This document shows positions 5,085-39,883 of a DNA stretch of 64,000 nt, one piece after another. Both the position numbers and the translations under genes were made by a program. Each line of letters starts with the position of its first letter. The stretch's first letter is position 1. Under the pieces are notes generated by a model. That model had not been told where the DNA came from, did not search any database, and saw nothing but the letters and a program-made list of their open reading frames with translations. The stretch comes from a bacterium (GTDB taxonomy: Bacteria > Electryoneota > RPQS01 > DYHQ01), in NCBI GenBank assembly GCA_030622545.1, contig JAUXGA010000011.1, forward strand, positions 18,214 to 82,213, given 5' to 3'.

Positions 5085-6842
5085 TTAGAAATTCCAACTC
5101 AGCGCCAGCGCGGTTTCAACGCGCTCTTCAACACCCGTCTCTGCAACGCGCGTGATACGCCCTTGTACGAGAAAATTCTCCAGCAACTCCAGCACAGCCC
5201 AGAGCGAATAACGGTCTGTCCGGTGGAAATCACCCTCCAACAAGGGGTACGTGGAGTCCGGCGAACCCGTCAGCGGCGCGTAAATACTCCCCCCTACATT
5301 GTTATACTCACCTGCTGAAGAATTCGCACCATGATTCTGCCGTTGCCAACGCAGTCCGAACTGCACGGGATAAAAAGTCGCTCGAAGTTCTGTGGTCATG
5401 AATTCCGAATTGGGTTCAAGCGTAAGCCCAAGCGGCGATGTCCAATGCGTATAAACATTCGTCGCAAAAACATGCGAATAAACAAACGGCCTGACTTGCG
5501 TGTATTCGGCGCGTGCGTCGAGAAACCGCCATGTTCCCCGTGGCGCGGCATGGATGCCGAGAGTAAACGCAGACTTGTTGCGCGCGTCATCGCTCCCGAA
5601 TTCGGCAATCGCCATATCATCCCAGAGCAATTCTCCATAAGTCATCAGGCCGCGAAACGGACGCCAAGTCGCATCAAAAGCGACGAGCAAATTATCCTTA
5701 TCGCCCTCTGCATGCTCAATGGAATATAAAAAAGACACGGGAGTGATATACGCCAATTCAACGTTCCGGTCGCCATAAACCACTCCCTGAGAAAATCCAA
5801 GAAGCAGATTCGGTAGCGCTTTCAGCTCAATGCGCTGCGCCGACAGGAATTTCTGCCGGTCAATGGTGCGAGGTCGTCCGCTCGGGGCGATGTACAGTGT
5901 ATCTCCCGGCACTCCGTAGGCTTTGAGAAACGCATGAAGAAACGTATAATTCAAAACCGGGCCATCTTTGCCGCGAAAGACAGCATCGAAACGCACATAA
6001 TCGAACGGCGGCCCTTCAGCGGAAAGAAAAAGCTGTCCGAATCGCCCCGGCCCCCATGCATGACGCCCGCGCCCCAGCGAAAGCGACATATTGCGTCCGT
6101 ACCACTGGATAAAAGACTCCGAAACATTGTATGAAACGCTCGTCGCTTTATCCTTTAGATCAACAAACGCCCAGCGATCCTCATAGAGCTGTTCGCGCGC
6201 TGTATAAGGACCGCGCCCCGATTCGCCGTAATCGCGGAAATCCACCATGAAATGCAGCGCACCTGCCGCTCCTCCCTCCAGACGGAAACCCGCCCCGCTG
6301 CGGCGAATACCTTGCGCTTCCGAGTCTGTCCAGATGCCTTCAATTCCATAGACAGGCTGATACGTCAAAGCGAACTTCTCTTCGAGATGAAGCGCCGCAA
6401 AATGATGGTTCGTGGAATAGAGCCATCGCAATCCGCGCCGATTTCTTATCCCAACCTTTTTTAGAAACCGGGACCAGCCGCTTTCGCATACCGGTTTGAT
6501 GCGGCCTTCAGCAATTAGATGCCGCGATAGACTTTCACTTCGGAACCGGCGGCTTTCTTTATCGGAAAATCCTACTGAATTCACTGAATCGAAATGAAAC
6601 TGGAAATAGGGACGAATATGTGACTGCAACGGCAAATCTCCTCGCGCCTGCGTTCGATCAACATAGTCATAAAATCGATGACCGAGCTGAGGATAATCGA
6701 AATAAATACTGCGACAACCGGGCTCCGCCGCAAAGACACGCGATGCGATGAGTCCCATCGCCAAAGCTCCAATCATATACGACCAACGTTTAATCGTAAC
6801 TTTTCCCTTCATCCGATTCTTCTTGAAGTAAGTACTTTTCAT
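5085..6842 (-). CDS. Outer-membrane beta-barrel protein (hypothetical; porin/Wzi-like)
   Basis: 585 aa; N-terminal signal-like segment MIGALAMGLIASRVFAAEP; alternating amphipathic beta-strand pattern, aromatic-rich, C-terminal ...LALSWNF (terminal Phe typical of OMPs). Confidence 0.55.
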   Translation of the reverse strand: MKSTYFKKNRMKGKVTIKRWSYMIGALAMGLIASRVFAAEPGCRSIYFDYPQLGHRFYDYVDRTQARGDLPLQSHIRPYFQFHFDSVNSVGFSDKESRRFRSESLSRHLIAEGRIKPVCESGWSRFLKKVGIRNRRGLRWLYSTNHHFAALHLEEKFALTYQPVYGIEGIWTDSEAQGIRRSGAGFRLEGGAAGALHFMVDFRDYGESGRGPYTAREQLYEDRWAFVDLKDKATSVSYNVSESFIQWYGRNMSLSLGRGRHAWGPGRFGQLFLSAEGPPFDYVRFDAVFRGKDGPVLNYTFLHAFLKAYGVPGDTLYIAPSGRPRTIDRQKFLSAQRIELKALPNLLLGFSQGVVYGDRNVELAYITPVSFLYSIEHAEGDKDNLLVAFDATWRPFRGLMTYGELLWDDMAIAEFGSDDARNKSAFTLGIHAAPRGTWRFLDARAEYTQVRPFVYSHVFATNVYTHWTSPLGLTLEPNSEFMTTELRATFYPVQFGLRWQRQNHGANSSAGEYNNVGGSIYAPLTGSPDSTYPLLEGDFHRTDRYSLWAVLELLENFLVQGRITRVAETGVEERVETALALSWNF

Positions 6843-6978
6843 AAGCTTAATATAATACTCTCGCCTTTGAATCGCAAGCCGTCTGTCTTCAACTTGACTA
6901 ACATAATGCTTGACATTTCAAACAATATCATGTATATTCTAAAAATGACCGCAAATAAAATTTCGGGAGGTATCCCCA

Positions 6979-8603
6979 TGAAAAAGATATCCGTGTTTGT
7001 AATGGGCCTTGCCCTGATTATCCTGCTCGTCGTGATAAGCTGCACCAAGAAATCAACCGATGGCGGAGACGGACCGGCTACATCCTGGACGGTGATGTTG
7101 TACGGCGCTGGTAATAATAATCTGGACTCCACCAACAACGCTACGTCGTACATTATTCAGGATGTGCAGGACATGGAAAAAGTCGGCAGCCAGCCCGGTA
7201 TGGAAATCATTGCGATGGTGGCATCGTGGCGCACGGGCGGGCAGGCGAAATACTACCATGTCGAATACCACCCCAGCGAGAATCCGGATCAACTCAGTTC
7301 GCCCGTCCTTGCAGACAAGGGCTCCAAGGATATGTCCGACCCGGCCACGCTCACGGAGTTCCTCGACTACTGCAAGACCAACTATCCCGCTTCGAATTAT
7401 CTGTTGATCATTAATGACCATGGAGCCGGCTGGCCGGGAAGCTGCACCGACGATTTGAACGGCGGTGGTGGCGATTTGACAATGCCCGAGCTTAAAAACG
7501 CGATTGCTCAATCGGAGTTGGGGCACGTTGATATTGTCACCTTCCACGCCTGTTTGATGGCAATGGTGGAAGTGGGCTATGAGCTGCGCAGTGTGGCGGA
7601 CTATATGACCGCTTGCCAGTTTACTATGCCGATGGAAAACATTCTTGGCTCTGATATCTGGCTGGGTTGGCTTAAAGATAATCTGAATGCAACACCGTAT
7701 GATTTGGCGCACAAAATTGCTGAATCCGTTCCCCAGCGCGCGGAATTCAAGCAGAAGACCAGTCATTACGCAATGATTAATCTTGCCGAAATGACCACCA
7801 TCGGTTCAAAAATCGGAAATTTCGGAAATATTCTCGCTACTGAAGGCGCCGCTCATTGGGGTGAAGTCGTACATGCGTGGGGAGAAACACATTTCACGCA
7901 ATATGACAATCCCGCATATGTGGATTTGCGCGAGTTCGCCAATAAGATCAAGCTGGAACCCAACCTGTCGCAAATCAATCTTATCAACACACAGGCCAAT
8001 GAAATCATTGCTTCAGTGAACAATGCCGTCCCCTACACGCGCGTCTATATCAAACCCGGTGATCCCAACGTGGCGCGCGGCGGACTCAATATTCACTTCC
8101 CACATCAGATACAGGATTTTGACTCCGCGAACTACGTCACACTGGATTTCCATAATACCAACTGGCACGCTTTCTTATCGACATTCCTGCGCAATTCAGG
8201 TCCAGAGCCGCCTCCAGGATGCCCGACGACTTGCGCCGAAGCGGCAGTGATTCAAGTGGGAGAAGCTGTAACCGAATGTCAATTTTCTGAAGGGGAAACC
8301 CAACACTGGGGCCGCATCACCCTCAATCCGGGAAATTATCGCTTCCAACTCTACGGCTTCCCCGGAGGAGCGGATTACGACTTGTACTCCTTTATGCAAT
8401 GCGCTGATTATCCCGACAATCCCACCGGCTGCAGTGGTGAAGCTACCGGGCCTGAAGATTTTGGCTGTGAAGTTACAGGAGGCGCTATCGAGGCTTTTGT
8501 TCTTGTCAACGCCTATCAGCCACCTTATGGCGGCTATACTCTGTTGATTACGCAGACAGGGATAGCAAATCCAGATAATCCAACGATTGTAGCCACACGA
8601 TAG
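6979..8603 (+). CDS. Clostripain-like cysteine peptidase (family C11) lipoprotein with C-terminal pre-peptidase (PPC-like) domain
   Basis: GGAGG 8 nt upstream of ATG at 6979 (ORF-track 6678 start is an N-terminal over-extension); MKKISVFVMGLALIILLVVISC lipoprotein signal; His-Cys dyad motifs IINDHGAGWPGS and VTFHACLMAMVEVGYEL as in C11 peptidases; Cys/Gly-rich C-terminal domain. Confidence 0.8.
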
Positions 8604-8635
8604 CTCATCCTGCTACCTGAAAAATTTCTTACTGA

Positions 8636-8669
8636 AACACCTCCGGTGCGAGAATAACCGGGGGTGTTT
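8636..8669 (+). terminator. Stem-loop downstream of C11 peptidase gene (AAACACCTCCGG...CCGGGGGTGTTT)
   Basis: Inverted repeat directly 3' of stop; followed by T-rich tract tcctatttcc. Confidence 0.4.
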
Positions 8670-8803
8670 CCTATTTCCCCTCGAGTGCGGGGGAAAGAAG
8701 AGGAGTTGACTTTGTGCGATTTCAGTCGTAAATTTATGTTTTTCCTCACGATGCTGCAGGCTATCCTGCTGTTGTGATTATAGTTCCGAATCATAGAACA
8801 ATC

Positions 8804-9496
8804 ATGCATCTGCTTATCTTCGACATAGACGGCACTCTGGCAACGTTTGCCGGAATAACGCGCGTCGCGTTCAACCAGACGTTCGAGCATCTGTTCGGAC
8901 AACCGGGTCCGTGGGGACAAGTGCTCCCACATGGTAAAACCGACCGTGCGATTCTGCGCGAATGCCTCGATGTCGTTCAAATCAACGGTAATTTTGATGC
9001 GATGTTCTCGAAATTTGTCGACAACTATCTGCGCGATCTCCAGCAAGCCCTTCAAACGGCAAGCAAACCAAGACTCATGCCCGGCGTGCGTGAGCTTCTT
9101 GAAAGGTTGGCGACGAACAATACCGCTTGCTTAGCATTGGGAACCGGGAATGTCGAGGAAGCCGCTCGCATGAAATTGCGTCATCTGAATGTGGAGTCAT
9201 TTTTCCCCGTCGGCGGTTTTGGTGAATTCACCGATGAACGCAGCGAATTGCTTGCCGATGCGGTTGATAATGCCGCACGTCACTTTCAATGCACATTCCC
9301 ACCGAAAAACACCTGGGTCATTGGAGATACAACCTATGACATCGAAGGCGCTCAAGCGCTGGGATTGCGCGCGTTAGCTGTCGCGACAGGCGGCTTGTTC
9401 TCATCTGATGATTTACGCCGCGCCAAACCGGATCTTCTTTTCGAGGATTTATCCGACACCGAGCACGTTATAAAATCTCTGAATCTTTCAGACTAA
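8804..9496 (+). CDS. HAD-superfamily hydrolase (phosphatase)
   Basis: MHLLIFDIDGTL (motif I DxDGT), ...WVIGDTTYDIEGAQALG (motif IV); ORF-track start 8774, internal Met at 8804 preferred. Confidence 0.75.
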   Translation: MHLLIFDIDGTLATFAGITRVAFNQTFEHLFGQPGPWGQVLPHGKTDRAILRECLDVVQINGNFDAMFSKFVDNYLRDLQQALQTASKPRLMPGVRELLERLATNNTACLALGTGNVEEAARMKLRHLNVESFFPVGGFGEFTDERSELLADAVDNAARHFQCTFPPKNTWVIGDTTYDIEGAQALGLRALAVATGGLFSSDDLRRAKPDLLFEDLSDTEHVIKSLNLSD

Positions 9497-9505
9497 CTCA
9501 ATCCC

Positions 9506-10354
9506 ATGTTAGAAAACACCTTCTGCCACATACCGCGGCTGTCGCTGCGCACCGAAGAAAAATTCTGGTCGGAGGGAATCCATGGCTGGCATGCTGCGTT
9601 GAACGTGAGCACACTTCCCGTGGCGCGCGTGAATAAGGATGCTTTACGACGGCATCTCGATGATTCGATTGCGAATCTGAAACTCGGGAATCCGTATTAC
9701 TTCGCAGACCTCCTGCCACCGGGACTGCACTGGAGACTCTTCCCTGAATTTCGCAATAGAATCGCTTACCTCGATATTGAAACCACCGGTTTGTACGGAT
9801 GGCTGGATAAAATCACAACGATTGCTCTCTATGACGGGAAAATCATCCGTCACTACATCCAGGGAGTAAACCTGCAGGAGTTCAAACGGGATATTCAGAA
9901 ATACGATATTCTGGTTACTTATAACGGCAAATGCTTTGATGTGCCTTTCCTGCGCAGCGCTTTGAAAATACGACTGGAGCAAGTTCATATCGACTTGCGC
10001 TATGTGCTGCATGCGCTCGGATTTTCCGGCGGCCTGAAAGCTTGTGAAAAGCAGCTTGGAATCTCCCGAGGCGAACTCGACGGGATCGACGGATTTATGG
10101 CTGTTGCGCTCTGGTCCGATTTCAAGAACAACCGGAATCCACGAGCGCTTGAAACACTCGTCAGCTACAACATTCAGGATGTGCTGAATCTGGAGACTCT
10201 GCTTGTGAAAGCCTACAACCGAAAGCTGAAAGAAACGCCGTTTACTCGAGTGCGCAAACTACCCATGCCTGTCACACCTGAAAATCCATTCCAACCCGAC
10301 CGCGAAACCGTGAACCGCCTGAAATACGAATTCGCGCGGCACTTCGAGCAGTAG
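9506..10354 (+). CDS. RNase-H-like superfamily predicted 3'-5' exonuclease (COG3359/YprB-like) with ~95-aa N-terminal domain of unknown function
   Basis: AYLDIETTGL (DEDD exo motif I), ILVTYNGKCFDVPFL (motif II-like), YNIQDVLNLETLL (motif III-like); 10-nt gap from HAD gene, 3-nt gap to DJ-1 gene. Confidence 0.6.
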   Translation: MLENTFCHIPRLSLRTEEKFWSEGIHGWHAALNVSTLPVARVNKDALRRHLDDSIANLKLGNPYYFADLLPPGLHWRLFPEFRNRIAYLDIETTGLYGWLDKITTIALYDGKIIRHYIQGVNLQEFKRDIQKYDILVTYNGKCFDVPFLRSALKIRLEQVHIDLRYVLHALGFSGGLKACEKQLGISRGELDGIDGFMAVALWSDFKNNRNPRALETLVSYNIQDVLNLETLLVKAYNRKLKETPFTRVRKLPMPVTPENPFQPDRETVNRLKYEFARHFEQ

Positions 10355-10356
10355 AA

Positions 10357-10887
10357 ATGGAGGAACGTATCGTGAAACTTGCTGGTAAAAAAATTGCTGT
10401 GCTTATCGAAGCAAATTATCAGGATATGGAAGCTTGGTATCCGATTTTCCGTTTGCGCGAAGAGGGCGCGGAAGTTTTAGCTATCGGGACAGGCTCCAGC
10501 CCGACGTATGAAGGCAAATACGGCTACCCGATTACCGTGGATTTCAGCGCCGACCAAGTCCATGCCGATGAGTTCGATGGTGTGGTAATTCCCGGTGGCT
10601 GGGCGCCAGATAGATTGCGGCAATACAAAACTGTGCTCGATTTCGTGCGGCATATCTTTGAATCTAAAAAACCCGTTGCTGCGATTTGTCATGGAGGGTG
10701 GGTATTGGCCAGCGCGGGACTTGTTCGCGGCAAACATCTGACAAGTTTCATCGCTATCAAAGACGACCTGAAAAACGCGGGAGCCAACTGGGAAGACAAG
10801 GAAGTTATCGTGGACGGCAACCTCGTCACGTCGCGCCGCCCCGGAGATTTGCCTGCTTTCATGCGCGAGTTCATCCGGCTTTTTTGA
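10357..10887 (+). CDS. DJ-1/PfpI family protein (class I glutamine amidotransferase-like; putative deglycase/protease)
   Basis: KIAVLIEANYQDME...AAICHGGWVL nucleophile elbow Cys; alternative GTG start at ~10372 has a stronger RBS (GGAGGA-N7-GTG). Confidence 0.8.
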   Translation: MEERIVKLAGKKIAVLIEANYQDMEAWYPIFRLREEGAEVLAIGTGSSPTYEGKYGYPITVDFSADQVHADEFDGVVIPGGWAPDRLRQYKTVLDFVRHIFESKKPVAAICHGGWVLASAGLVRGKHLTSFIAIKDDLKNAGANWEDKEVIVDGNLVTSRRPGDLPAFMREFIRLF

Positions 10888-10894
10888 CCCAAGC

Positions 10895-10920
10895 GCACTG
10901 CCGTGCGGCACTACCAGACG
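10895..10920. repeat. Short palindromic repeat, family D (GCACTGCCGTGCGGCACTACCRGAC); copy 1 of 3 in window
   Basis: Near-identical copies at 25302-25327 and 63872-63896; core TGCCGTGCGGCA is nearly self-complementary. Confidence 0.6.
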
Positions 10921-10936
10921 ACCTTCGGACTAAATC

Positions 10937-12640
10937 ATGGACAAGCACGACGCTGCTCAGACACTTCGATTTTACGCGACGCTCTTGGAACTGACGGAAG
11001 AGACACCGTTCCGGGCGCGCGCATATGCCGGAGCGGCTCGCTCGCTGGAAACACTCGACGAACCTTGGGAAGAACTTGCTCGTTCCGGTCGCATCGCTAA
11101 AATCCGAGGTATCGGCAAGGGACTTGCCGCCGCTTTAAAGCAATTCGCAGAGACGCAGGCCTTTCCTGAATTAGATGAACTGCGCTCGCAGGTTCCCGAT
11201 GGCGTGCTCGATTTACTTCGTCTTCCCGGACTGGGCACGAAAAAAGCGCGGGCGCTCTGGCAGAAGCTTCACATTGCGAGTTTAGGGCAGCTTGAATTCG
11301 CCTGCCGTGTCAATCGCCTAATTGACCTTCCCGGCTTCGGCCTTAAGACACAGCAAAAATTCCTTGAAGGTATCGCATTTCTCCGCGCAACCGAGGGACG
11401 TCACCTGCGTCATCACGCGCTTGCGGCTGCCTCTGCATTGGAAAAGAGTTTAAGCAAACTCAGCGGCGTCGAAAAAGTTGTCTTCGCTGGAAGTTTGCGT
11501 CGCGGCAATGAAATTATCGGCGATTTGGATGTTATTGTTCAGGCGAGCGCGGATAAACACGCTGAGTTGCGGGAACAAATTTCGAAGATACTTCAAATCG
11601 AGAAATCCGGCAAAGATGAAATCCTTCGAGGCCGAACGACGGAAGGATTCGAAGTCGAGCTCTCTCTTCACGACGCAGCCTCACTGCCGGTAACGTTGCT
11701 TTTCGCCACAGGTTCCAAAGCACATTTGAATGAGCTGACGCAACTCGCAAAGAAACGCGGTCTCGCTCTTACAAATAAAAACTTGAAGGGACGCATTTCA
11801 ACCGAAGGAGATATTTACCGCCTGCTGGGTATGGCTCCGATTCCGCCGGAGTTGCGTGAAGGTCGCGGCGAAATCAAACGCGCGAGCGACGCTCCCTTTC
11901 CCGAGGCAATTACATCGGAAGATTTGCGCGGCATTCTTCATGTTCATACTACCGCCAGCGATGGACGGTCAACGCTGAAAGAAATGGCTCTCGCCGCGCA
12001 GAAAAGCGGCTTTCAATACCTCGGTATCGCTGATCATTCTCAATCGGCTGCTTACGCCGGAGGATTGACTCCCGAGCGCGTGCGTGAGCAGTGGAAGGAA
12101 ATCAATGAACTGACCAGCGAGCTTGCTCCCTTCCGAATTCTGAAAGGAACCGAGGTAGATATTCTCGCTGACGGTTCCCTCGATTACGATGATGAACTGC
12201 TCGCCGGTTTTGATTTCGTCGTTGCTTCGATTCATTCGGGTTTCCGTATGACCGAAGAAGCGGCGACGGAACGTCTTTGCCGGGCGTTGGAAAATCCGCA
12301 TGTGGATATTTTAGGACATCCGACCGGACGATTACTTTTAGCGCGCGACGGCTATCCCGTCAACATGGATGCCGTTATCAAATGCGCGGCGGCCCACGGC
12401 AAAGCGATTGAAATGAATTCAAGTCCGTACCGCCTCGATTTGGACTGGCGTCACCTGCAAACAGCTCAAGAAGCGGGTGTGCCTGTGCCGTTATGTCCGG
12501 ACGCGCATGATGTGAATGGCCTCGCCGATATTCATATCGGAGTGCAGGTTGCACGAAAGGGGCCGCTTCTGCCTGATGCGTGCCTGTCAACATGGTCGGT
12601 TGATAAATTTTCAGAATGGACAACGTCTCACAATAAATAG
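10937..12640 (+). CDS. polX: DNA polymerase X family (Pol beta-like nucleotidyltransferase + C-terminal PHP phosphoesterase domain)
   Basis: N-terminal HhH/8-kDa-like region, GSLRRGNEIIGDLDVIV (NT catalytic Asp pair), PHP motif ILHVHTTASDGRSTLKEMALAAQKSGFQYLGIADHSQS. Confidence 0.85.
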   Translation: MDKHDAAQTLRFYATLLELTEETPFRARAYAGAARSLETLDEPWEELARSGRIAKIRGIGKGLAAALKQFAETQAFPELDELRSQVPDGVLDLLRLPGLGTKKARALWQKLHIASLGQLEFACRVNRLIDLPGFGLKTQQKFLEGIAFLRATEGRHLRHHALAAASALEKSLSKLSGVEKVVFAGSLRRGNEIIGDLDVIVQASADKHAELREQISKILQIEKSGKDEILRGRTTEGFEVELSLHDAASLPVTLLFATGSKAHLNELTQLAKKRGLALTNKNLKGRISTEGDIYRLLGMAPIPPELREGRGEIKRASDAPFPEAITSEDLRGILHVHTTASDGRSTLKEMALAAQKSGFQYLGIADHSQSAAYAGGLTPERVREQWKEINELTSELAPFRILKGTEVDILADGSLDYDDELLAGFDFVVASIHSGFRMTEEAATERLCRALENPHVDILGHPTGRLLLARDGYPVNMDAVIKCAAAHGKAIEMNSSPYRLDLDWRHLQTAQEAGVPVPLCPDAHDVNGLADIHIGVQVARKGPLLPDACLSTWSVDKFSEWTTSHNK

Positions 12641-33706: not shown

Positions 33707-33867
33707 TACGCTCCCGCGTATTGTACGCGCGTCCCCACAATGCGAACAAATTCGAGCTCTCCAACACGCAGGAGCGTGTTGGCTAGTGATGGTTAGGAAG
33801 AGTTAATGCGGTGTTGGCTGCTTGCAGCTGACCCATTCCCGTTCTGACAAACGAACGAATTCTTCAT

Positions 33868-33936
33868 CGCCGAGCCGGGTTCAGCGCAAGTTCCCGTATG
33901 CCAAACGATACAACTATCGCGCGTAACCCGGCCGGA
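33868..33936. repeat. Family B ~70-bp inverted-repeat element, copy 3
   Basis: cgccgagccgggttcagcgcaagttcccgtatgccaaacgatacaactatcgcgcgtaacccggccgga. Confidence 0.65.
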
Positions 33937-33950
33937 ACTAACGAGAATCC

Positions 33951-33983
33951 GCCGCGAGTGGGTGCCCCCACCCCTCGCGCAAT
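33951..33983. repeat. Palindromic repeat family C (GCCGCGAGTGGGTGCCCCCACCCCTCGCGCAAT)
   Basis: CGCGAGTGGGTG / CACCCCTCGCG arms form a hairpin; adjacent to family B copy. Confidence 0.6.
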
Positions 33984-34054
33984 TACCTCACCGCGAAAAT
34001 CGCAAGAACAGGGATAGAATATATGAGGAAACAGAATATGTGTTTCATTTTACA

Positions 34055-34083
34055 TAAAAAAGCCTCCCTTTCGAGAGGCTGTT
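34055..34083 (-). terminator. Rho-independent terminator of tonB (AACAGCCTCTCGAAAGGGAGGCTTTTTT on minus strand)
   Basis: GCCTC/GAGGC stem immediately 3' of tonB stop followed by T6. Confidence 0.55.
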
Positions 34084-34087
34084 GAAT

Positions 34088-34831
34088 TTACTTCTTGAAT
34101 TCAAAATTGAATGGAATCGCTATCCAGACTCCCACAGGATTGTTCTGCTGAATCGCCGGTGTGAATTTCCATTTCTGGATAACTTTGAGAACCTCCTCTT
34201 CGAAGCCCAGACCAGCCGGTTTGGCCGCCATGATTTCCCACTGCTTCACGTCGCCTTTTTTGTCCACGTACACCTTGACGACGACCTTGCCCTTCACGCC
34301 CGCCGTCTTCGCCATTTCCGGATAATCCGGCTTTGGATTCACAATCGGCGCCGGCGCTATTTCATAGGGTGTGAACACACTCGAGGCAGGTATCAAATCC
34401 AAGTCGAGCTCCTGAATCACCAATTCGATATCATCGCCGCCGAAAAGCGTCGTGTCTTCGACGGGAGTGGCAGCAATCGCGAGCTCTTCTTGAGACAGGA
34501 TTGTCACTTCTTCCTTCGCCTCTTCGTCCGGAATCGCCACAGGTTTTGCCGCTGCCGGAGGAGCAATCCTCGGTGCGGCTACTTTGATTGATGGCGGAAC
34601 CGTCTTGTCCGTAATCGAAGGCGGCGCTCCGAGCATGGACGGATCCAAGATGACGATGCGTTTCGGTCCGGCCGGCTTTCGACTTAGAATATTCGCAACG
34701 ACAAACGAACCGATAGCCGTCCCATGAAGGCCTACCGATATGGCGAGCCCAATCCAGAGATAACGGCTCAAGTATTTTTTCAATTCAAAAGAACCGTAAC
34801 GGTCTTTTGTTACTTCTTCATAAACATCCAT
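34088..34831 (-). CDS. tonB: TonB-family energy transducer (N-terminal TM anchor, Pro/Ala-rich spacer, C-terminal TonB domain)
   Basis: LWIGLAISVGLHGTAIGSFVV TM; PxP-rich linker APRIAPPAAAKPVAIPDEE; C-terminal PxYPxxA-like PDYPEMAKTAGVKGKVVVKVYVDKKGDV. Confidence 0.75.
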   Translation of the reverse strand: MDVYEEVTKDRYGSFELKKYLSRYLWIGLAISVGLHGTAIGSFVVANILSRKPAGPKRIVILDPSMLGAPPSITDKTVPPSIKVAAPRIAPPAAAKPVAIPDEEAKEEVTILSQEELAIAATPVEDTTLFGGDDIELVIQELDLDLIPASSVFTPYEIAPAPIVNPKPDYPEMAKTAGVKGKVVVKVYVDKKGDVKQWEIMAAKPAGLGFEEEVLKVIQKWKFTPAIQQNNPVGVWIAIPFNFEFKK

Positions 34832-34982
34832 AATCCGCCTCCTATGCGGCCTTGCTACTAATATATTAAAGCCAGCTTACAGTCTGTAAAAAAGGAGCGA
34901 TAAACGAATTATGGCTCCAATGCATTTTACCAAGACTTCTTCAGACTATCGTTTCATTGAATATCGCACTTGAACTGAAGCT

Positions 34983-36086
34983 CTACTCCAAATCATTTTG
35001 AGGTGAATGGCCATCCTCGAAAGACACGCTAGAAATAAGACTATTCACCCACTCGACTGGCGTAGCCCAATAGCAACATGACTCTGAATCCCTAACCTGC
35101 CAAATAGCTACGCCAATTACTTCACCCTCTGCATTGACTAATGGACTGCCACCGAGCGCTCTGTTAATCGGGGCATTAAACTGAATAACGGTTCCATAAT
35201 TATCAATCATAGGAATCGCGGTTACAAAACCACTTGAAACTATATAAGGAGACTCTATTGGATTTCCAATTACATGTATCTGATCCCCACCCTTTGGATA
35301 ACCTACATTTACTGGTAAAAGATCGATTGACTCCGGGAAATCTTTAAGCTGAACAATAACGAGATTATGATCCTGATCTTCAGCAAGAATGTTCTTAACC
35401 TCATATCGATTATTAGCAATGCCTATTTCAATATGCTCAGCTCCATCAAGTAAATGCCACGTGGTAACGAACCACCCTCTTTCATTAATAAAAAAGCCGC
35501 TTCCTTGAAAGCGACTTTCTGATCCATCCAGTTCTTTCGTCGCAATCACAGTAGCCACGGAAATACAGGTGTTTGATTTGTGTGCAGTTAAATTCTGCGA
35601 GTTGCTGCTGACATCTTCAATGGACGCAAATGAAGAGGATTGAAAATCCACTTGTGCTTGTGAGGAGCACTGAATCTCCTCGATTAACGGTGTGATTCTT
35701 GTTTCGTCAAATACCTCTTGTGATTCATGAATACTCAATAACGCTTGATTTGCAGACGTGTTAATGGATGTCTTCTCTTGCGCATAGGAATCTATCCCAA
35801 TAATTAAGGAAGCAACAAGAAAAGTAAGAATATAGGCTAGTTTATATTTCTGGACCCGCCTTAAGAATAAAAAACACTGTTTTTCAATAATATCAACCCT
35901 TTTCACACTTACCGCTTTCTGAATAAGTCCCGAAAGCAATTCATCAACGTAACTCAACCTGCGTTCTACTTTCATCGGGATGATTCTTTTGTGATGGCTT
36001 ATGTAATGTGATAGTGAAAATATCTGAAACATGGTTCCATCCGTGTTGTTTTGTGGGGGAACTTGACGACGCACAATGCCTCTCAT
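34983..36086 (-). CDS. Membrane-anchored trypsin-like (S1/HtrA-type, no PDZ) serine protease homolog, copy B; noncanonical Ser motif
   Basis: His motif FVTTWHLL, Asp motif DQDHNLVIV, Ser-region ALGGSPLVNAEGEVIGVA lacks canonical GxSGxP; ~45-aa cytoplasmic N-tail then TM (AYILTFLVASLIIGI); lies in AT-richer island. Confidence 0.65.
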   Translation of the reverse strand: MRGIVRRQVPPQNNTDGTMFQIFSLSHYISHHKRIIPMKVERRLSYVDELLSGLIQKAVSVKRVDIIEKQCFLFLRRVQKYKLAYILTFLVASLIIGIDSYAQEKTSINTSANQALLSIHESQEVFDETRITPLIEEIQCSSQAQVDFQSSSFASIEDVSSNSQNLTAHKSNTCISVATVIATKELDGSESRFQGSGFFINERGWFVTTWHLLDGAEHIEIGIANNRYEVKNILAEDQDHNLVIVQLKDFPESIDLLPVNVGYPKGGDQIHVIGNPIESPYIVSSGFVTAIPMIDNYGTVIQFNAPINRALGGSPLVNAEGEVIGVAIWQVRDSESCCYWATPVEWVNSLISSVSFEDGHSPQNDLE

Positions 36087-36147
36087 ATATCGTCAAGCCG
36101 CGCCATTCATTTAATTAACAAAACTCACCCAGTCCGAGATCGGCCAA

Positions 36148-37116
36148 TTACTTTTTTGATCGCCGACATTTGATCCCAACTTCCTTTAAAAGATCGTGAA
36201 CCCTCCTGATCGGAACAGCTAGAAATAGACCTTTTTCCTGACCTTGTATGTCTATCAATTTCCAAGTCGCGACCCCAATAACCTCTCTATCGGAATTCAC
36301 CAATGGAGATCCCGAGTAACCCTCCCCGACCGGTGCATTAAATTCTATTAAAAAATCAATGCCAGATGTTAAGTTGTCGCATATCGATGTGACAAATCCG
36401 TTCGAGTTAGTCGGAGCGGTTTCAAGTGGCACTCGCGTGGCAATTACCCAATCGTTAACCTTTGGACACTCCATATTCCATGGTAATAAGGGCGGTACCG
36501 CAACCACGAGATTTGTAACACAAGCTATAGCTAAATCATGTTTGGAGTCCTCAATTATTATCGAATCAATCCAACAGTGGTGCCCCGCAGTATGTACATC
36601 AACATGGTGTGCTCCCTTGATGCAATGTAAATTCGTTGCTAACCAGCCTCGATCGTTGACAAAAAATCCCGAGGCTTCAGACTTGCTTAGCTTTTCCCCT
36701 TCTTTCCTGATAGTTCGAATAGTCACGAGTGATTGGGATACTTCAAAGGAAATATCTTCAGCTAATCTAACTCTTCTGAGCAAATACGTAGGTGAAGACA
36801 CCAAAGACGCTGATATCTTCCCATCTGTGGAAGATAAAAAGTTGCCTCCTTGAAAGCCTAGAACTCCCCTTCTAAATATAGGGATGATTCCATCAAAATG
36901 CAACTCATTTTTTGCCAGAGAAAATTCTGTTGTCCATGGGTCACCAGTAATTGTAACCATGTTACTTATAGGCAATAGAGCACATTCTTGAGCATTTATG
37001 TTAGAAATAAGACAAATTAGGCAGACTAATAGGATAATTGCTCTATTTTCCAACGAATCACACGAATTGCACGTATTTCTCGTGAAGAAATGGCGTAGAG
37101 TCATAAAATTAATCAA
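36148..37116 (-). CDS. Membrane-anchored trypsin-like (S1) serine protease, copy A (canonical triad)
   Basis: LATNLHCI (His), KHDLAIACV (Asp), GYSGSPLVNSDREVIGVA (GxSGxP Ser); N-terminal tail with CNSC then TM IILLVCLICLISNI; AT-richer than flanks. Confidence 0.7.
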   Translation of the reverse strand: MINFMTLRHFFTRNTCNSCDSLENRAIILLVCLICLISNINAQECALLPISNMVTITGDPWTTEFSLAKNELHFDGIIPIFRRGVLGFQGGNFLSSTDGKISASLVSSPTYLLRRVRLAEDISFEVSQSLVTIRTIRKEGEKLSKSEASGFFVNDRGWLATNLHCIKGAHHVDVHTAGHHCWIDSIIIEDSKHDLAIACVTNLVVAVPPLLPWNMECPKVNDWVIATRVPLETAPTNSNGFVTSICDNLTSGIDFLIEFNAPVGEGYSGSPLVNSDREVIGVATWKLIDIQGQEKGLFLAVPIRRVHDLLKEVGIKCRRSKK

Positions 37117-37234
37117 ATAAACTCCCCTTAAAGAAGTAGATCGTAAATTTCTATTCTTCGGTAAATATGACAGCAGAGAAGATCCTTGTACTCCAAATCT
37201 CCTTCTTCACCTTTTTAACGATCAAATCGCCTGA

Positions 37235-37843
37235 TTAGTGCCCGCTTTCAATTTCTCTTTGGGCTTCTTCGATTTCTCCCGCCGCAGCAGCAGCTTCGGC
37301 TTCTGCGACGACCGCCATGCAATTGGCGGGGATATTCGCCAACCGCAGCACGGAATCATCCGCGAAGGTATATCGGTCAAGGCTGAAACGGGTCGTCTTT
37401 GCCACGTTGAACTCGTCAATAAGATCGACCATGCTCTTATAATTCGCCTTTCGGCAGACGCGAGCGACGACAATCAGACGACTCCGTCCTTCTTTGTCAA
37501 GGCCAACAAACGCCCTGCGTTCCAGCAGTTTGGCGCGCAGAGAATCCCATTCCAAGGGAATAGGCAGGTCGTTTCCAACATTATAAAACAATTCATCGGT
37601 TTCGATAACCCGCAAGGTCAGAAGTCGGGATTCGCCGACCTCCAACTCCATGGCAACTTCGCTCTCCGGGGGCAAGTTGATTTCCATAGCTTGGGGCAAC
37701 CGGAAAACCGTGGTGACCATAAAGAAGACGAGCAGTAGAAAAGCGATATCCACCATCGGTGTCATATCAATCCGGATGGCGACTCGAGGTCGCTTCCACG
37801 CCTTTCCGCTTCGATCTTTTGGTCCTGCAACATCACCAGCCAT
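37235..37843 (-). CDS. exbD: Biopolymer transport protein ExbD/TolR (with C-terminal Ala/Glu-rich tail)
   Basis: IDMTPMVDIAFLLLVFFMVTT signature TM segment of ExbD/TolR. Confidence 0.8.
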   Translation of the reverse strand: MAGDVAGPKDRSGKAWKRPRVAIRIDMTPMVDIAFLLLVFFMVTTVFRLPQAMEINLPPESEVAMELEVGESRLLTLRVIETDELFYNVGNDLPIPLEWDSLRAKLLERRAFVGLDKEGRSRLIVVARVCRKANYKSMVDLIDEFNVAKTTRFSLDRYTFADDSVLRLANIPANCMAVVAEAEAAAAAGEIEEAQREIESGH

Positions 37844-37855
37844 ACGAAATCCTCC

Positions 37856-38362
37856 TTATCCGGCCTCGCCTGCGGGCCGAACACCCTCCGGCTCGGTTTC
37901 CAGCTCTGTAATGAGATGGAAACGCGTCATTTTATTCTTCTGCAAAGCGGCCATTACATCTTCCACCAGCCCGTAATCCGCTTCTTTATCCACCCTCGCG
38001 ATAATACGAACCTTGGGATTATGTAGTCGGTAGTTCGTAATCGTCACCGGCAGTTCGTGCGTCGAGAACTCCTTGCTGGTAATCTGGCCTGTCTCCGTTT
38101 CTGAAATAAACCCGTATTTGACATCCAAATTCGCCGCGCCCGTCGTCAGATAGACCTTGTTCTGCTTGGGAATCGTGATAATAATCACATCCGACTCCGG
38201 CAGCTTAATCTCGGAATGACTGCCCGGAATGCTTACCGTGAATTCTTCAGGTGGCTTAAACTGAGTCGTCGACATGAAGAAGACCAGAAGAAGGAATGCG
38301 ATATCCACCATCGGCGTCATATCGATTTTGATCGCGATGCGTTTCGGTTTTGGAACCGCCAC
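37856..38362 (-). CDS. exbD: Biopolymer transport protein ExbD/TolR, second copy
   Basis: IDMTPMVDIAFLLLVFFMSTT; tandem with previous. Confidence 0.8.
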   Translation of the reverse strand: MAVPKPKRIAIKIDMTPMVDIAFLLLVFFMSTTQFKPPEEFTVSIPGSHSEIKLPESDVIIITIPKQNKVYLTTGAANLDVKYGFISETETGQITSKEFSTHELPVTITNYRLHNPKVRIIARVDKEADYGLVEDVMAALQKNKMTRFHLITELETEPEGVRPAGEAG

Positions 38363-38366
38363 AGCT

Positions 38367-39140
38367 CTACGCCTCCTTTTCCTTCAACAGTTCGACCATC
38401 ACATAGGATGCTTCATCAATACTATAGTTGAACTGGTCCACTTTGTTGACAAAAAAGTTATAAGCAATAATTGCGAGAACCGCCGCCGCAAGTCCGCCGG
38501 CCGTGTTGACGAGCGCTTCAGAAATTCCCATCGCAAGCGCAATTGCGTCAGGGGCCCCTTGCTGCGCCATCGCACCAAAGGCACGGATCATCCCGATGGT
38601 CGTTCCTAATAGCCCGACCATGGTCGCCACGGATGCAATGGTCGAAAGAGCAATCAGGTTGCGCTCGAGAATGGGAATCTCAATCAGACGCGCTTCATCA
38701 ATCGCGCGCTGGGTTTCCGACAGTCTCTTCTCCGGCGAAATCTCCTTCGCATCGACCAATCGCCGGTACTGGTCAATTCCGGATTTCAGCACCGCCGCCG
38801 CTGACCCTCGCTGCTTATCGCAAAGCTTCGACGCATCTTCGAGACGTCCTTCACGAATAGCTTTACTGAACTCGGCGAAATAGAGTTGAATCACCCGCGT
38901 CCCTCGAGCCTTGCGTAATGTCAAGAAGCGTTCGAAGATATACGCAATAACCATGATAAGCATCATCAGGAGTGTAGCCACTAACGGCCCTGCTTGCCGA
39001 ATCTGGTGAAGAATCGGAGTCAATGGACGTCCTGTCGTGGGATCCATCTTATCCATCGCGGGAACCAAGTAGAAAATAATACCGACGGATATCACCAGAG
39101 CGACGACAAGAACGATCATGGTAAAAGCACCTTGTTTCAT
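38367..39140 (-). CDS. exbB: MotA/TolQ/ExbB proton-channel protein
   Basis: Three TM helices, conserved LGLLGTTIGMIRAF and ALVNTAGGLAAAVLAII segments. Confidence 0.85.
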   Translation of the reverse strand: MKQGAFTMIVLVVALVISVGIIFYLVPAMDKMDPTTGRPLTPILHQIRQAGPLVATLLMMLIMVIAYIFERFLTLRKARGTRVIQLYFAEFSKAIREGRLEDASKLCDKQRGSAAAVLKSGIDQYRRLVDAKEISPEKRLSETQRAIDEARLIEIPILERNLIALSTIASVATMVGLLGTTIGMIRAFGAMAQQGAPDAIALAMGISEALVNTAGGLAAAVLAIIAYNFFVNKVDQFNYSIDEASYVMVELLKEKEA

Positions 39141-39194: not shown

Positions 39195-39371
39195 TTACAA
39201 AACAGAACGCGGAAATTCCATATTATAGAGTTCTGTTACTTCCTTAAGATTGGCAACAGCTTCTTCCACGGTGTGTCCCTGACTCACGGTTCCTGTCTTA
39301 GGACACTCAGCGACGTACAGATCATCTTCTTTGTGCAAAACCGCCGTATATGTCTGACTGTTCGTTTTCAA
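39195..39371 (-). CDS. HicB-like antitoxin-family small protein (RNase-H-fold HicB N-domain only), second copy
   Basis: Not in ORF track (TTG start with GGGAG 9 nt upstream): LKTNSQTYTAVLHKEDDLYVAECPKTGTVSQGHTVEEAVANLKEVTELYNMEFPRSVL matches HicB_lk_antitox pattern (YxAxxxxEDGxYVAExPExPGxxSQGxTxEEAxxNxKEAxELY). Confidence 0.5.
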   Translation of the reverse strand: MKTNSQTYTAVLHKEDDLYVAECPKTGTVSQGHTVEEAVANLKEVTELYNMEFPRSVL

Positions 39372-39401
39372 CGCGGGTACTCCCTATCCCCAAATCCGTA
39401 T

Positions 39402-39641
39402 CTATATTTTGCCGTACGCTTCCAAAAATTCTTCTCTCGAAATTCCAGATTGGGTACAGATTGTTCGCAAAGTTGAGGCTTTTATCTTTGGCTTATTTGG
39501 CATCGTCAGCGGTATTTTGGTTCCATCGCGATTATCTCGCACCATAGAAATATGCTCTTTCTCGCGCACAATTCGGAATCCCAGAATCTCGAGTGTTTTA
39601 ATGACTTTCGGCTTGGGAGCATCAACTGGAAATTTTGTCAT
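39402..39641 (-). CDS. hicA: HicA-family mRNA-interferase toxin (YcfA-like)
   Basis: 79 aa; PKVIKTLEILGFRIVREKEHISMVRDNRDGTKIPLTMPNKPKIKASTLRTICTQSGISREEF fits HicA (k.ikaLek.Gf..vRqkGSH..l.......tvPvH..kel..gtLr.Ilkqagl); start overlaps hicB stop (ATGA). Confidence 0.7.
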   Translation of the reverse strand: MTKFPVDAPKPKVIKTLEILGFRIVREKEHISMVRDNRDGTKIPLTMPNKPKIKASTLRTICTQSGISREEFLEAYGKI

Positions 39642-39868
39642 TGGACTTGTACGCCTACTTCAGCGACAAAGGCTTCAATGACCGAAGGTTCACCTTCTAA
39701 GACTTCTTCTCCAAAGGATTCAATATGGAACCGAATTGCCGACTTTACATCAGATAGGGCTTCTTCATGGGTTTCGCCTTGACCGACAACGACACCTTTC
39801 AAACCTAAAGGATAGGCGACATACCCATCCGGATGTTTCTCGACAATTATTTTAATTAACTTTTGCAT
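39638..39868 (-). CDS. hicB: HicB-family antitoxin (UPF0150 / HicB_lk_antitox)
   Basis: 76 aa; KIIVEKHPDGYVAYPLGLKGVVVGQGETHEEALSDVKSAIRFHIESF matches HicB N-domain pattern; 4-nt overlap with hicA. Confidence 0.7.
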   Translation of the reverse strand: MQKLIKIIVEKHPDGYVAYPLGLKGVVVGQGETHEEALSDVKSAIRFHIESFGEEVLEGEPSVIEAFVAEVGVQVQ

Positions 39869-39883
39869 TCGAATTCCTGCTCC

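Follow-up and report, generated by a model that had tools for sequence, protein, structure and literature searches.

A strain-specific cassette encoding an intact and a degenerate HtrA-like protease domain lies in the exbD–tonB spacer of a TonB operon

The TonB operon and the island

In the 64-kb stretch of DNA analysed here (the window), a TonB operon on the minus strand starts with exbB (38367..39140; Pfam MotA_ExbB) and proceeds through exbD1 (37856..38362; Pfam ExbD) and exbD2 (37235..37843; Pfam ExbD, E 3.6e-19) to tonB (34088..34831; Pfam TonB_C, E 1.6e-19). The native exbD2 and the native tonB lie directly upstream and directly downstream, respectively, of a foreign AT-rich island of 2356 bp (34848..37203, no strand assigned). 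The island carries two minus-strand genes, which encode protease A (36148..37116; 322 aa from a TTG start) and protease B (34983..36086; 367 aa as the longest ORF), both assigned from Pfam Trypsin_2, AF2, Foldseek and triad alignment. Alternative starts exist in both genes, at 37104 (ATG) and 37053 (TTG) in A, and at M19, M38 and a GTG at codon ~61 in B.

The island differs clearly in composition from the rest of the window. Specifically, the GC content of 34840-37234 is 0.405, compared with a window mean of 0.510 and a standard deviation of 0.025 for windows of the same size, and this is the minimum of all such windows across the 64 kb and the most deviant stretch. The tetranucleotide distance deviates likewise, with z = 9.45, or z = 6.1 with base-composition normalisation. 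In the two island genes, GC3 is 0.37 and 0.36, versus 0.57-0.62 in exbB, exbD1, exbD2 and tonB. This foreign composition points to a recent arrival. The longest stop-free run in the island spans 369 codons, whereas 2000 Markov simulations of the island gave 102 on average and no more than 230; with ORFs of 322 and 367 codons intact in DNA of 40% GC, far beyond chance, both are real genes.

An empty site in five relatives

The gene order TPR-exbB-exbD-exbD-tonB-PBP is kept in five independent relatives, whose TonB proteins are 70-99% identical, and none of these five loci has the protease pair. In L001 and L002 (95-99% nucleotide identity) and L003 (89%), the exbD2-tonB spacer is 127 bp long and holds no protease genes, and the loci L010 (TonB 84% identical at the amino acid level) and L011 (70%; 'Candidatus Latescibacterota bacterium') read TPR-exbB-exbD1-exbD2-tonB-orf98-PBP, again without a protease. 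Homology to L001, L002 and L003 by blastn ends at 37204 and restarts at 34847, and these break points (37204/37203 and 34848/34847) define the foreign segment as 34848-37203. The first-pass annotation had drawn the island at 34840-37234; the island itself is confirmed, and its true edges lie slightly further in. L001 carries 80 bp where the island stands. Given an empty site in five relatives, the island is an insertion found in this strain only, where it took the place of ~80 bp, and both the foreign composition and the insertion, as the first-pass annotation had claimed them, are established.

The island comes from a metagenome-assembled contig, so that a foreign fragment might have been mis-assembled into it, and both the restriction of the island to one contig and its sharp composition contrast with the flanks would agree with such an artefact. 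We regard this as extremely unlikely. Both junctions fall in one 127-bp spacer and the contig is collinear with relatives for >7 kb on either side of the island, so an artefact would need two coordinated chimeric joins; additionally, only 8-10 bp of sequence are shared at the junctions, which is less than assembler k-mers.

The manner of insertion can be narrowed as well. tonB matches L001 with 100% identity over its first 300 bp, exbD2 is 97% identical to its L001 counterpart at the amino acid level, and divergence is not raised beside the island, as in a recent event against a native background; without any drop in identity there, import by homologous recombination with a divergent donor is rejected. 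Neither terminal inverted or direct repeats nor a target-site duplication were found at the island ends, no integrase or transposase was found among the neighbour genes scanned, and the 64-kb window revealed no genes for tRNAs or other RNAs. The island thus shows no hallmark of a discrete mobile element of the IS, transposon, integron-cassette or integrative-island type. No donor sequence was detected in phage, plasmid, viral-contig or metagenome collections, with the island compared by blastn with plasmids and phages and protein queries used elsewhere.

The same cluster has at least two further variable sites, one upstream of exbB, where HicAB or PRiA4 cassettes are found, and a variable segment downstream of tonB. 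The latter contains, in L001, a 330-aa ORF that was considered as a relative of the island and set aside, as it has neither similarity to it nor a Pfam match.

Catalytic state of proteases A and B

Both island proteins contain an HtrA-like protease domain, located at residues ~109-317 of A and ~159-352 of B. Against Pfam Trypsin_2 (PF13365; gathering threshold 27.6), A scores 60.9 bits (E 3e-16) and B scores 66.7 bits (E 5e-18). AF2 models, predicted as single chains, have pLDDT >90 over residues 109-317 of A and 159-352 of B, and Foldseek searches retrieve Deg1, HTRA1 and DegS for A and Deg1 and DegS-deltaPDZ for B, in both cases at E ~1e-15 and TM ~0.8 (target-normalised). A and B are 34% identical to each other over 190 aa (E 6e-33). 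The fold is thereby established, and Pfam, structure prediction and Foldseek bear out the earlier description of two paralogous, PDZ-less protease domains of the S1C type.

The two domains differ in their catalytic residues. In a profile alignment of 300 domains, protease A has an HDS triad consisting of H164 (36627-36625), D194 (36537-36535) and S268 (36315-36313), and alignment to the S1C proteases HTRA1 and DegS places its TNLH, HDLA and GYSGSP motifs on the catalytic residues, as expected from the canonical triad first attributed to this copy. In the same profile alignment, protease B has HNG, formed by H211 (35456-35454), N241 (35366-35364) and G312 (35153-35151). The suspicion that this copy is degenerate was therefore well founded and extends to a second residue, with Asp replaced by Asn in addition to the change of the nucleophile Ser to Gly. 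Homologues ~40% identical to protease B all have D and GSSGSP at the degenerate positions. From its His211/Asn241/Gly312 triad, B is predicted to be inactive, a pseudo-protease that would be folded and catalytically dead, and it keeps the structural glycines and a GEVIGVA motif.

Predicted export of A and B

Each protein has one hydrophobic segment ahead of its protease domain. In A this comprises residues 26-40, AIILLVCLICLISNI (36997..37041, minus strand), which lie in an AF2 helix at residues 23-42 and are followed by NA/QE, where the slash marks the putative cleavage point. In B it comprises residues 83-98, LAYILTFLVASLIIGI (35793..35840, minus strand), 16 uncharged residues with a KD value of 2.6, followed by DSYA/QE. 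The segments thus end in NINA/QE and DSYA/QE, and homologues, whose signal peptides are short and classical, share the resulting A-Q-[ED] ending. Both segments are probably the h-regions of signal peptides, and from these sequence features we infer that A and B would be exported and cleaved by signal peptidase after NINA and DSYA, which would probably free them into the periplasm. Of the unique cytoplasmic N-tails and single TM anchors proposed in the first-pass annotation, the hydrophobic segments are present, but their length of 15-16 residues and the A-Q-[ED] ending make an anchor doubtful. As for the long N-tails, no Pfam family matches them, and in-frame alternative starts nearer the hydrophobic segments cast doubt on the tails themselves.

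In the N-tails and linkers, Pfam scanned at permissive settings yielded no credible domain, such as an anti-sigma domain or a zinc finger around the CNSC motif. In both A and B, an orphan segment of ~55-65 residues links the signal peptide to the protease domain; it is poorly predicted, AF2 confidence being low there in both models.

Relationship of A and B to each other and to their homologues

For both A and B, other homologues rank ahead of the island paralogue, which stands at ranks 74 and 61 of 298, with identities all at ~35%; a recent tandem duplication is therefore rejected as their origin. No close relative of A or B was found among ~15 billion proteins, and no orthologues were found in a word-seeded search of 5.8 billion proteins or in JGI metagenome contigs, nor, for A, in viral contigs. 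An exhaustive HMMER search of 1.84 billion representatives leaves protease A a singleton and finds no homologue that covers its residues 1-105. Protease B has no entry in either protein collection, although A, TonB and ExbD from its contig are represented there, so the source annotation may treat B as a pseudogene.

Among the 300 homologous domains, 280 have an HDS triad. In related multi-domain proteins, a degenerate domain almost always adjoins an intact one, judging from their sequences, and 14 of 24 multi-domain homologues join the two (for example P0136, P0137, P0143 and P0005). By analogy, A and B look like a two-gene version of this multi-domain design. In magnetotactic bacteria, MamO is a degenerate HtrA protein that promotes MamE-dependent proteolysis (PMC4794232). 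The fused dead and active relatives, together with MamO and MamE, suggest that B is most likely a non-catalytic partner of A, and the related fused proteins lend support to the earlier idea of a pseudo-protease partner. Based on gene adjacency and on this analogy, we infer a partnership in which A would be the catalytic subunit, with His164/Asp194/Ser268 as its triad, and B would most likely serve A in regulation, substrate binding or assembly. At one homologue locus, L006, a possible second split pair of dead and active genes was discarded, since the second Trypsin_2 gene there is HDS.

The pair might instead be decaying DNA, with B a dead relic and A a functionless orphan, tolerated as read-through still expresses tonB. 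Two of the three catalytic residues are lost in B, B may be uncalled or flagged as a pseudogene given its absence from protein collections, the models are low in confidence from the signal peptide up to the protease domain, and there are no orthologues anywhere searched from which purifying selection could be shown. However, the ORFs of 322 and 367 codons are intact at 40% GC far beyond chance, both domains have a high-confidence predicted fold, the structural glycines and GEVIGVA motif are still present in B, and many relatives keep degenerate domains beside active ones, as with MamO. Decay therefore appears unlikely.

Transcription and possible functions

An intrinsic-terminator-like hairpin with a T-run, located just past the tonB stop (34061..34080, minus strand), is the only strong minus-strand terminator that the terminator scan detects from exbB to the end of tonB, and none was found inside the island. 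As the cassette lacks its own terminator, transcripts started at the exbB promoter probably read through it. Such read-through would probably transcribe A and B and still allow tonB to be expressed, as tonB is intact and its RBS (GCATAGGAGGCGGATTATG) is retained at the island junction. A promoter-like TTTACA-16-TAATAT lies upstream of tonB at the 3' end of the island (34863..34890, minus strand); it is a consensus match only, and the number of such sites in the region does not exceed the shuffle expectation.

The position of the pair in this operon would fit a functional addition to the TonB system that is co-expressed with it and processes TonB-dependent cargo, for instance imported peptides or proteins, or cleaves a TonB-dependent transducer, an anti-sigma factor or TonB/ExbD. 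The operon has no internal minus-strand terminator, the export signals on A and B would place both in the periplasm with the C-terminal domain of TonB, and further genes for the use of peptides are encoded in the window (POT transporter, M29 peptidase, S41 peptidase). DegS-type HtrA proteases act as site-1 proteases in envelope signalling, which adds to the appeal of such a role. On the other hand, the pair is missing at 5/5 related loci with the same operon, and ExbB/ExbD/TonB are beside 0/6 of the nearest homologues, whose neighbourhoods are unrelated contexts. The absence of a conserved co-occurrence with exbB, exbD and tonB across these 5 related loci and 6 homologue neighbourhoods is therefore established. 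Additionally, the foreign composition speaks for a recent arrival, and no anti-sigma, sigma or TonB-dependent transducer gene adjoins the pair. The functional link to TonB suggested in the first-pass annotation is thus not sustained, and we consider such an addition improbable. As the pair is present in the spacer of one strain only, it looks like an accessory insertion rather than a novel component of the TonB system.

Equally improbable is a heteromeric protease of the periplasm whose dead subunit B gates or targets active A and whose activity the exbBD-tonB transcript couples to conditions that induce TonB-dependent uptake. If true, it would be the split-gene form of a widespread, unstudied tandem Trypsin_2 architecture that combines degenerate and intact domains, and one strain would gain the processing of imported protein or peptide cargo or the cleavage of a TonB-system component.

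The earlier proposal of an acquired defence or toxin module would make the pair an anti-phage protease effector, or a secreted bacteriocin-like protease with a cognate, inactive 'immunity' paralogue. The island is strain-specific and AT-rich, in a cluster that collects toxin-antitoxin cassettes (HicAB), some homologues lie near a transposase or resolvase amid hypothetical genes, and PADLOC reports a domain-level match to RT-Protease_XI (E 1e-11). That match, however, is confined to the generic protease domain, the half of the RT-Protease_XI profile at positions ~327-506, and in the island neither a reverse transcriptase nor an NTPase, sensor or further known defence component was detected; the known retron type XI RT-protease system is accordingly rejected. 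Moreover, the export signals would take A and B out of the cytoplasm, an unusual feature in an anti-phage effector, and searches of viral contigs, phages and plasmids brought up no relative. A defence or toxin role is therefore not borne out and appears very unlikely.

We consider it likely that the island is a strain-specific acquired cassette encoding an active protease A and a dead partner B, both exported, whose position in the TonB operon is accidental. One strain would have acquired the cassette horizontally, and it would have landed in the 127-bp exbD2-tonB spacer of a Latescibacterota-like (FCB-group) chromosome in place of ~80 bp, most likely by chance insertion at a tolerant intergenic spot. 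The island is a real and fairly ordinary accessory cassette, and A and B are new but divergent members of a known protease type.

The locus raises no new question on TonB energy transduction. It provides a natural example of a foreign cassette that sits in an intergenic spacer of a conserved and essential operon and leaves that operon unbroken, and near-identical strains with empty sites fix the insertion event to a few bases. It also cautions against inferring function from operon position, because the TonB location is strain-specific and not common to relatives or homologues. Finally, it draws attention to a PDZ-less HtrA-like branch in which degenerate domains are nearly always found beside an intact one, a little-noticed pattern which suggests that MamO-like pseudo-protease partners may be general beyond the magnetosome.

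Comparison with known systems

The island flanks correspond to an FCB-type exbB-exbD-exbD-tonB cluster with PBP_like_2 and TPR genes, from which the locus differs in that one strain only has anything between exbD2 and tonB.

The chymotrypsin-like protease domain of A and B is that of HtrA/DegP/DegQ/DegS (MEROPS S1C; TIGR02037, 'Do family serine endopeptidase'), and envelope export would be a further common feature. Unlike the HtrA/Do family, which has at least one C-terminal PDZ, A and B have none by Pfam at E<=0.01 and end 5-15 residues past the protease domain; the family His-Asp-Ser triad is present in A and absent in B, which lacks Asp and Ser, and the orphan linker of ~55-65 residues after the signal peptide is a feature of A and B. 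Trimer-based oligomers are typical of the family; for A and B, the models cover single chains. In line with this, the island proteins score 70.1 and 69.3 bits against NCBIfam TIGR02037, versus a cutoff of 416.2, and fall far below all cutoffs of the NCBIfam DegP, DegQ, DegS, HhoA, MamE and MamO models.

MamE and MamO are, like A and B, intact and degenerate HtrA-type paralogues co-encoded on an island. B matches the NCBIfam MamO model better (4e-10) and A the MamE model (1e-8), both far below cutoff (27-39 bits versus 800), so the likeness is at the domain level only. A and B lack a magnetosome context, the CXXCH magnetochrome motif, PDZ and the TauE-like transporter domain, and the nucleophile position is Thr in MamO, whereas B has Gly together with the change of Asp to Asn.

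The nearest relatives are uncharacterised secreted Trypsin_2(-TPR) proteins (for example P0004, P0006 and P0008), with 35-40% identity over the protease domain and the same A-Q-[ED] signal-peptide ending. Compared with these, A and B are long-branch singletons that have no TPR repeats and carry an extra linker after the signal. Tandem Trypsin_2 forms (P0005, P0136, P0137 and P0143) combine dead and active domains, as A and B do between them; in the island, the two are split into separate genes, with the active one first.

An AT-rich island separates exbD2 from tonB

The TonB cluster, whose genes match Pfam MotA_ExbB, ExbD (twice) and TonB_C, lies between a large TPR protein gene upstream and a PBP_like_2 gene downstream, while the rest of the window is ordinary chromosome (Obg, DprA, S41 peptidase, LarA, POT transporter) that also encodes T9SS-tail proteins, a feature typical for the FCB group. 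An island of 2356 bp (34848-37203), for which the first-pass annotation had proposed a foreign composition, stands between exbD2 (37843..37235, minus strand; Pfam ExbD) and tonB (34831..34088, minus strand; Pfam TonB_C). This is borne out by windowed GC, tetranucleotide usage and GC3. Specifically, the interval originally singled out has a GC content of 0.405 versus 0.510 in the window, the lowest among same-size windows and ~4 sd under the mean; the tetranucleotide distance of 34848-37203 from the window reaches z = 9.45, and z = 6.1 once base composition is normalised; and GC3 is 0.37 and 0.36 in the two island genes, protease A and protease B, versus 0.57-0.62 in exbB, exbD1, exbD2 and tonB.

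That the segment was inserted, as had also been proposed, agrees with TonB-cluster synteny in relatives, where the site lacks the proteases. The 90%-identity clusters of TonB and ExbD2 have members on other contigs, which were fetched as L001-L004 (nucleotide identity to the window 95-99% for L001/L002 and about 89% for L003/L004), and the exbD2-tonB gap is 127 bp in L001, L002 and L003, all the fetched contigs carrying both genes. Scanning TonB against one genome per species added two loci, L010 and L011 ('Candidatus Latescibacterota bacterium'), whose TonB proteins share 84% (amino acids) and 70% identity with that of the window; both have the gene order TPR-exbB-exbD1-exbD2-tonB-orf98-PBP without a protease. 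L010, like L009, is titled 'uncultured Alphaproteobacteria bacterium' though both are close relatives of this Latescibacterota-like locus, probably a mislabel because the title conflicts with the T9SS-tail proteins of the window and with the label of L011.

Homology to L001 reaches position 37204 and restarts at 34847, and 2356 bp stand where L001 has 80 bp; the tonB ribosome-binding site is still present beside the island. Identity to L001 does not drop near the island, and tonB matches L001 at 100% over its first 300 bp. This steady identity indicates a recent insertion into a native background, not one carried in by divergent flanks. The island ends bear neither terminal repeats nor a target duplication, no mobility gene occurs among the neighbours scanned, and RNA gene searches of the window found none. 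An origin of the island in mis-assembly is highly improbable, as it would need two coordinated chimeric joins inside one 127-bp spacer.

The island encodes a predicted active protease and a predicted pseudo-protease

Protease A (37116..36148, minus strand; 322 aa counted from TTG) and protease B (36086..34983, minus strand; 367 aa taking the longest ORF) are intact ORFs, which are not due to chance because the stop-free run of 369 codons exceeds the maximum of 230 (mean 102) in 2000 simulations of island-like sequence. Both pass Pfam Trypsin_2 (60.9 bits for A and 66.7 bits for B; threshold 27.6), neither has a PDZ domain by Pfam, and they share 34% identity across 190 residues (E 6e-33). AlphaFold2 models built from 65-sequence alignments have pLDDT >90 over A 109-317 and B 159-352, and both match the HtrA protease domain in Foldseek, with Deg1, DegS-deltaPDZ and HTRA1 as best matches (E ~1e-15, TM ~0.8 normalised to target). 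With ORFs intact and folds confidently predicted, it is unlikely that the island represents decay.

When A is aligned to HTRA1, DegS and DegP, the catalytic His, Asp and Ser fall in TNLH, HDLA and GYSGSP. Triads were called on a profile made from 270 homologues with 300 aligned domain instances, 280 of which are H-D-S; the alignment gives H164/D194/S268 for A and H211/N241/G312 for B. Because the closest relatives of B all keep D and GSSGSP at the latter two positions, B has lost its nucleophile along with the Asp. The triads HDS (A) and HNG (B) thereby support the earlier proposal of an active protease paired with a pseudo-protease.

Membrane anchoring of the two proteins, also proposed earlier, is doubtful. 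Their hydrophobic segments span 15 residues in A (26-40) and 16 in B (83-98) and are followed by NINA|QE and DSYA|QE, resembling the short classical signal peptides of the nearest homologues, which end in the same A/S/G-Q-[ED] motif immediately N-terminal to the protease domain. Additionally, alternative in-frame starts lie nearer the cores (TTG at codon 22 in A, giving MENRAIILLV..., and GTG at about codon 61 in B), and the long N-terminal tails match no Pfam family. Cleavable signal peptides yielding soluble periplasmic proteins therefore seem more likely than an N-tail with a TM anchor. Most of the stretch that links the hydrophobic part to the protease domain has low AlphaFold2 confidence in both proteins (A ~43-108, B ~100-158).

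Protease A is a singleton: 5.8 billion clustered proteins yield A itself and two weak DegQ matches. When 1.84 billion representatives are searched exhaustively with HMMER, A alone falls below 1e-30, the remaining matches cover the protease domain only at 39% identity or less, and A ~43-108 has no homologue anywhere. The best matches of B are secreted Trypsin_2 proteins at 40% identity, many with fused TPR repeats. B is absent from both protein collections, which do contain A, TonB and ExbD2 from its 109-kb NCBI contig; B may have been left uncalled, or flagged as a pseudogene, in the source annotation. Searches of JGI metagenomes, viral contigs, plasmids and phages found no close relative. A recent tandem duplication was rejected, as neither A nor B is the nearest relative of the other (mutual ranks 74 and 61 among 298). 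A and B are very divergent additions to an already known protease type.

The position of the island beside tonB is best read as accidental

Co-transcription of the island with the TonB operon is plausible, because the terminator scan finds no minus-strand terminator ahead of a strong one 3' of tonB. No related copy of the operon (L001, L002, L003, L010, L011) carries the A and B genes, and six nearest-homologue neighbourhoods (L005, L006/L007, L008, L012, L013, L014) contain no ExbB, ExbD or TonB genes; two of the six are sets of hypothetical genes close to a transposase or a resolvase. The suggestion that the pair is part of TonB function, in an undescribed arrangement of significance, is thus not supported; a TonB-linked function, being without comparative support, seems improbable.

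Two further intergenic sites in the cluster vary from strain to strain, which also counts against a link to TonB. At the site that separates the TPR gene from exbB (39209-39879), the window carries a low-GC3 pair on the minus strand, HicB-like (39868..39638) and HicA (39641..39402); L001/L002 have a different HicAB pair without DNA homology to it, L003/L004 have a HicB remnant and a PRiA4_ORF3 gene, and L010/L011 are empty. Just past the tonB terminator, a non-coding segment of about 350 bp (33707-34055) that is GC-rich, full of hairpins and without a credible Rfam match is absent from L003, L010 and L011; in L001 its place is taken by 1 kb of DNA encoding a 330-aa ORF unmatched in Pfam. The most fitting reading of the protease island is as another accessory cassette at a site that tolerates insertion. 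That it serves in defence or as a toxin is very unlikely, its sole basis being a generic domain match to RT-Protease_XI, of which the RT part is missing.

Degenerate and intact Trypsin_2 domains recur together

Among the best matches of A are proteins carrying two to four Trypsin_2 domains, and 14 of 24 such multi-domain proteins have at least one degenerate and at least one intact domain, as in P0136 (HDN+HDS+HDS), P0137 (IGS+HDS+HDS), P0143 (QGW+HDS) and P0005 (AGN+HDS). Because nearly all degenerate domains in the sample adjoin an intact one, this fusion-type evidence suggests that the dead domain works with the live one. By analogy, A and B look like a two-gene form of this dead and active design, a mildly interesting pairing pattern.

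These four proteins, P0154, P0179 and others are secreted and carry two to four Trypsin_2 domains in tandem, often with TPR repeats between them, the first domain(s) degenerate and the last ones intact, a recurrent architecture that is apparently undescribed. Separately, L006 carries at 6001-10971 two intact (HDS) Trypsin_2 genes 2.4 kb apart amid hypothetical genes, with a resolvase gene ~4 kb upstream; one has fused TPR repeats, and the other has a membrane segment at its C-terminus and a tail resembling a zinc ribbon.

A and B score far under every cutoff of the HtrA, DegP, DegS, MamE and MamO NCBIfam models. The studied analogue of the dead/active pairing is MamO: this degenerate HtrA promotes the proteolysis that depends on MamE, and pseudo-proteases of its kind arose independently several times (PMC4794232).
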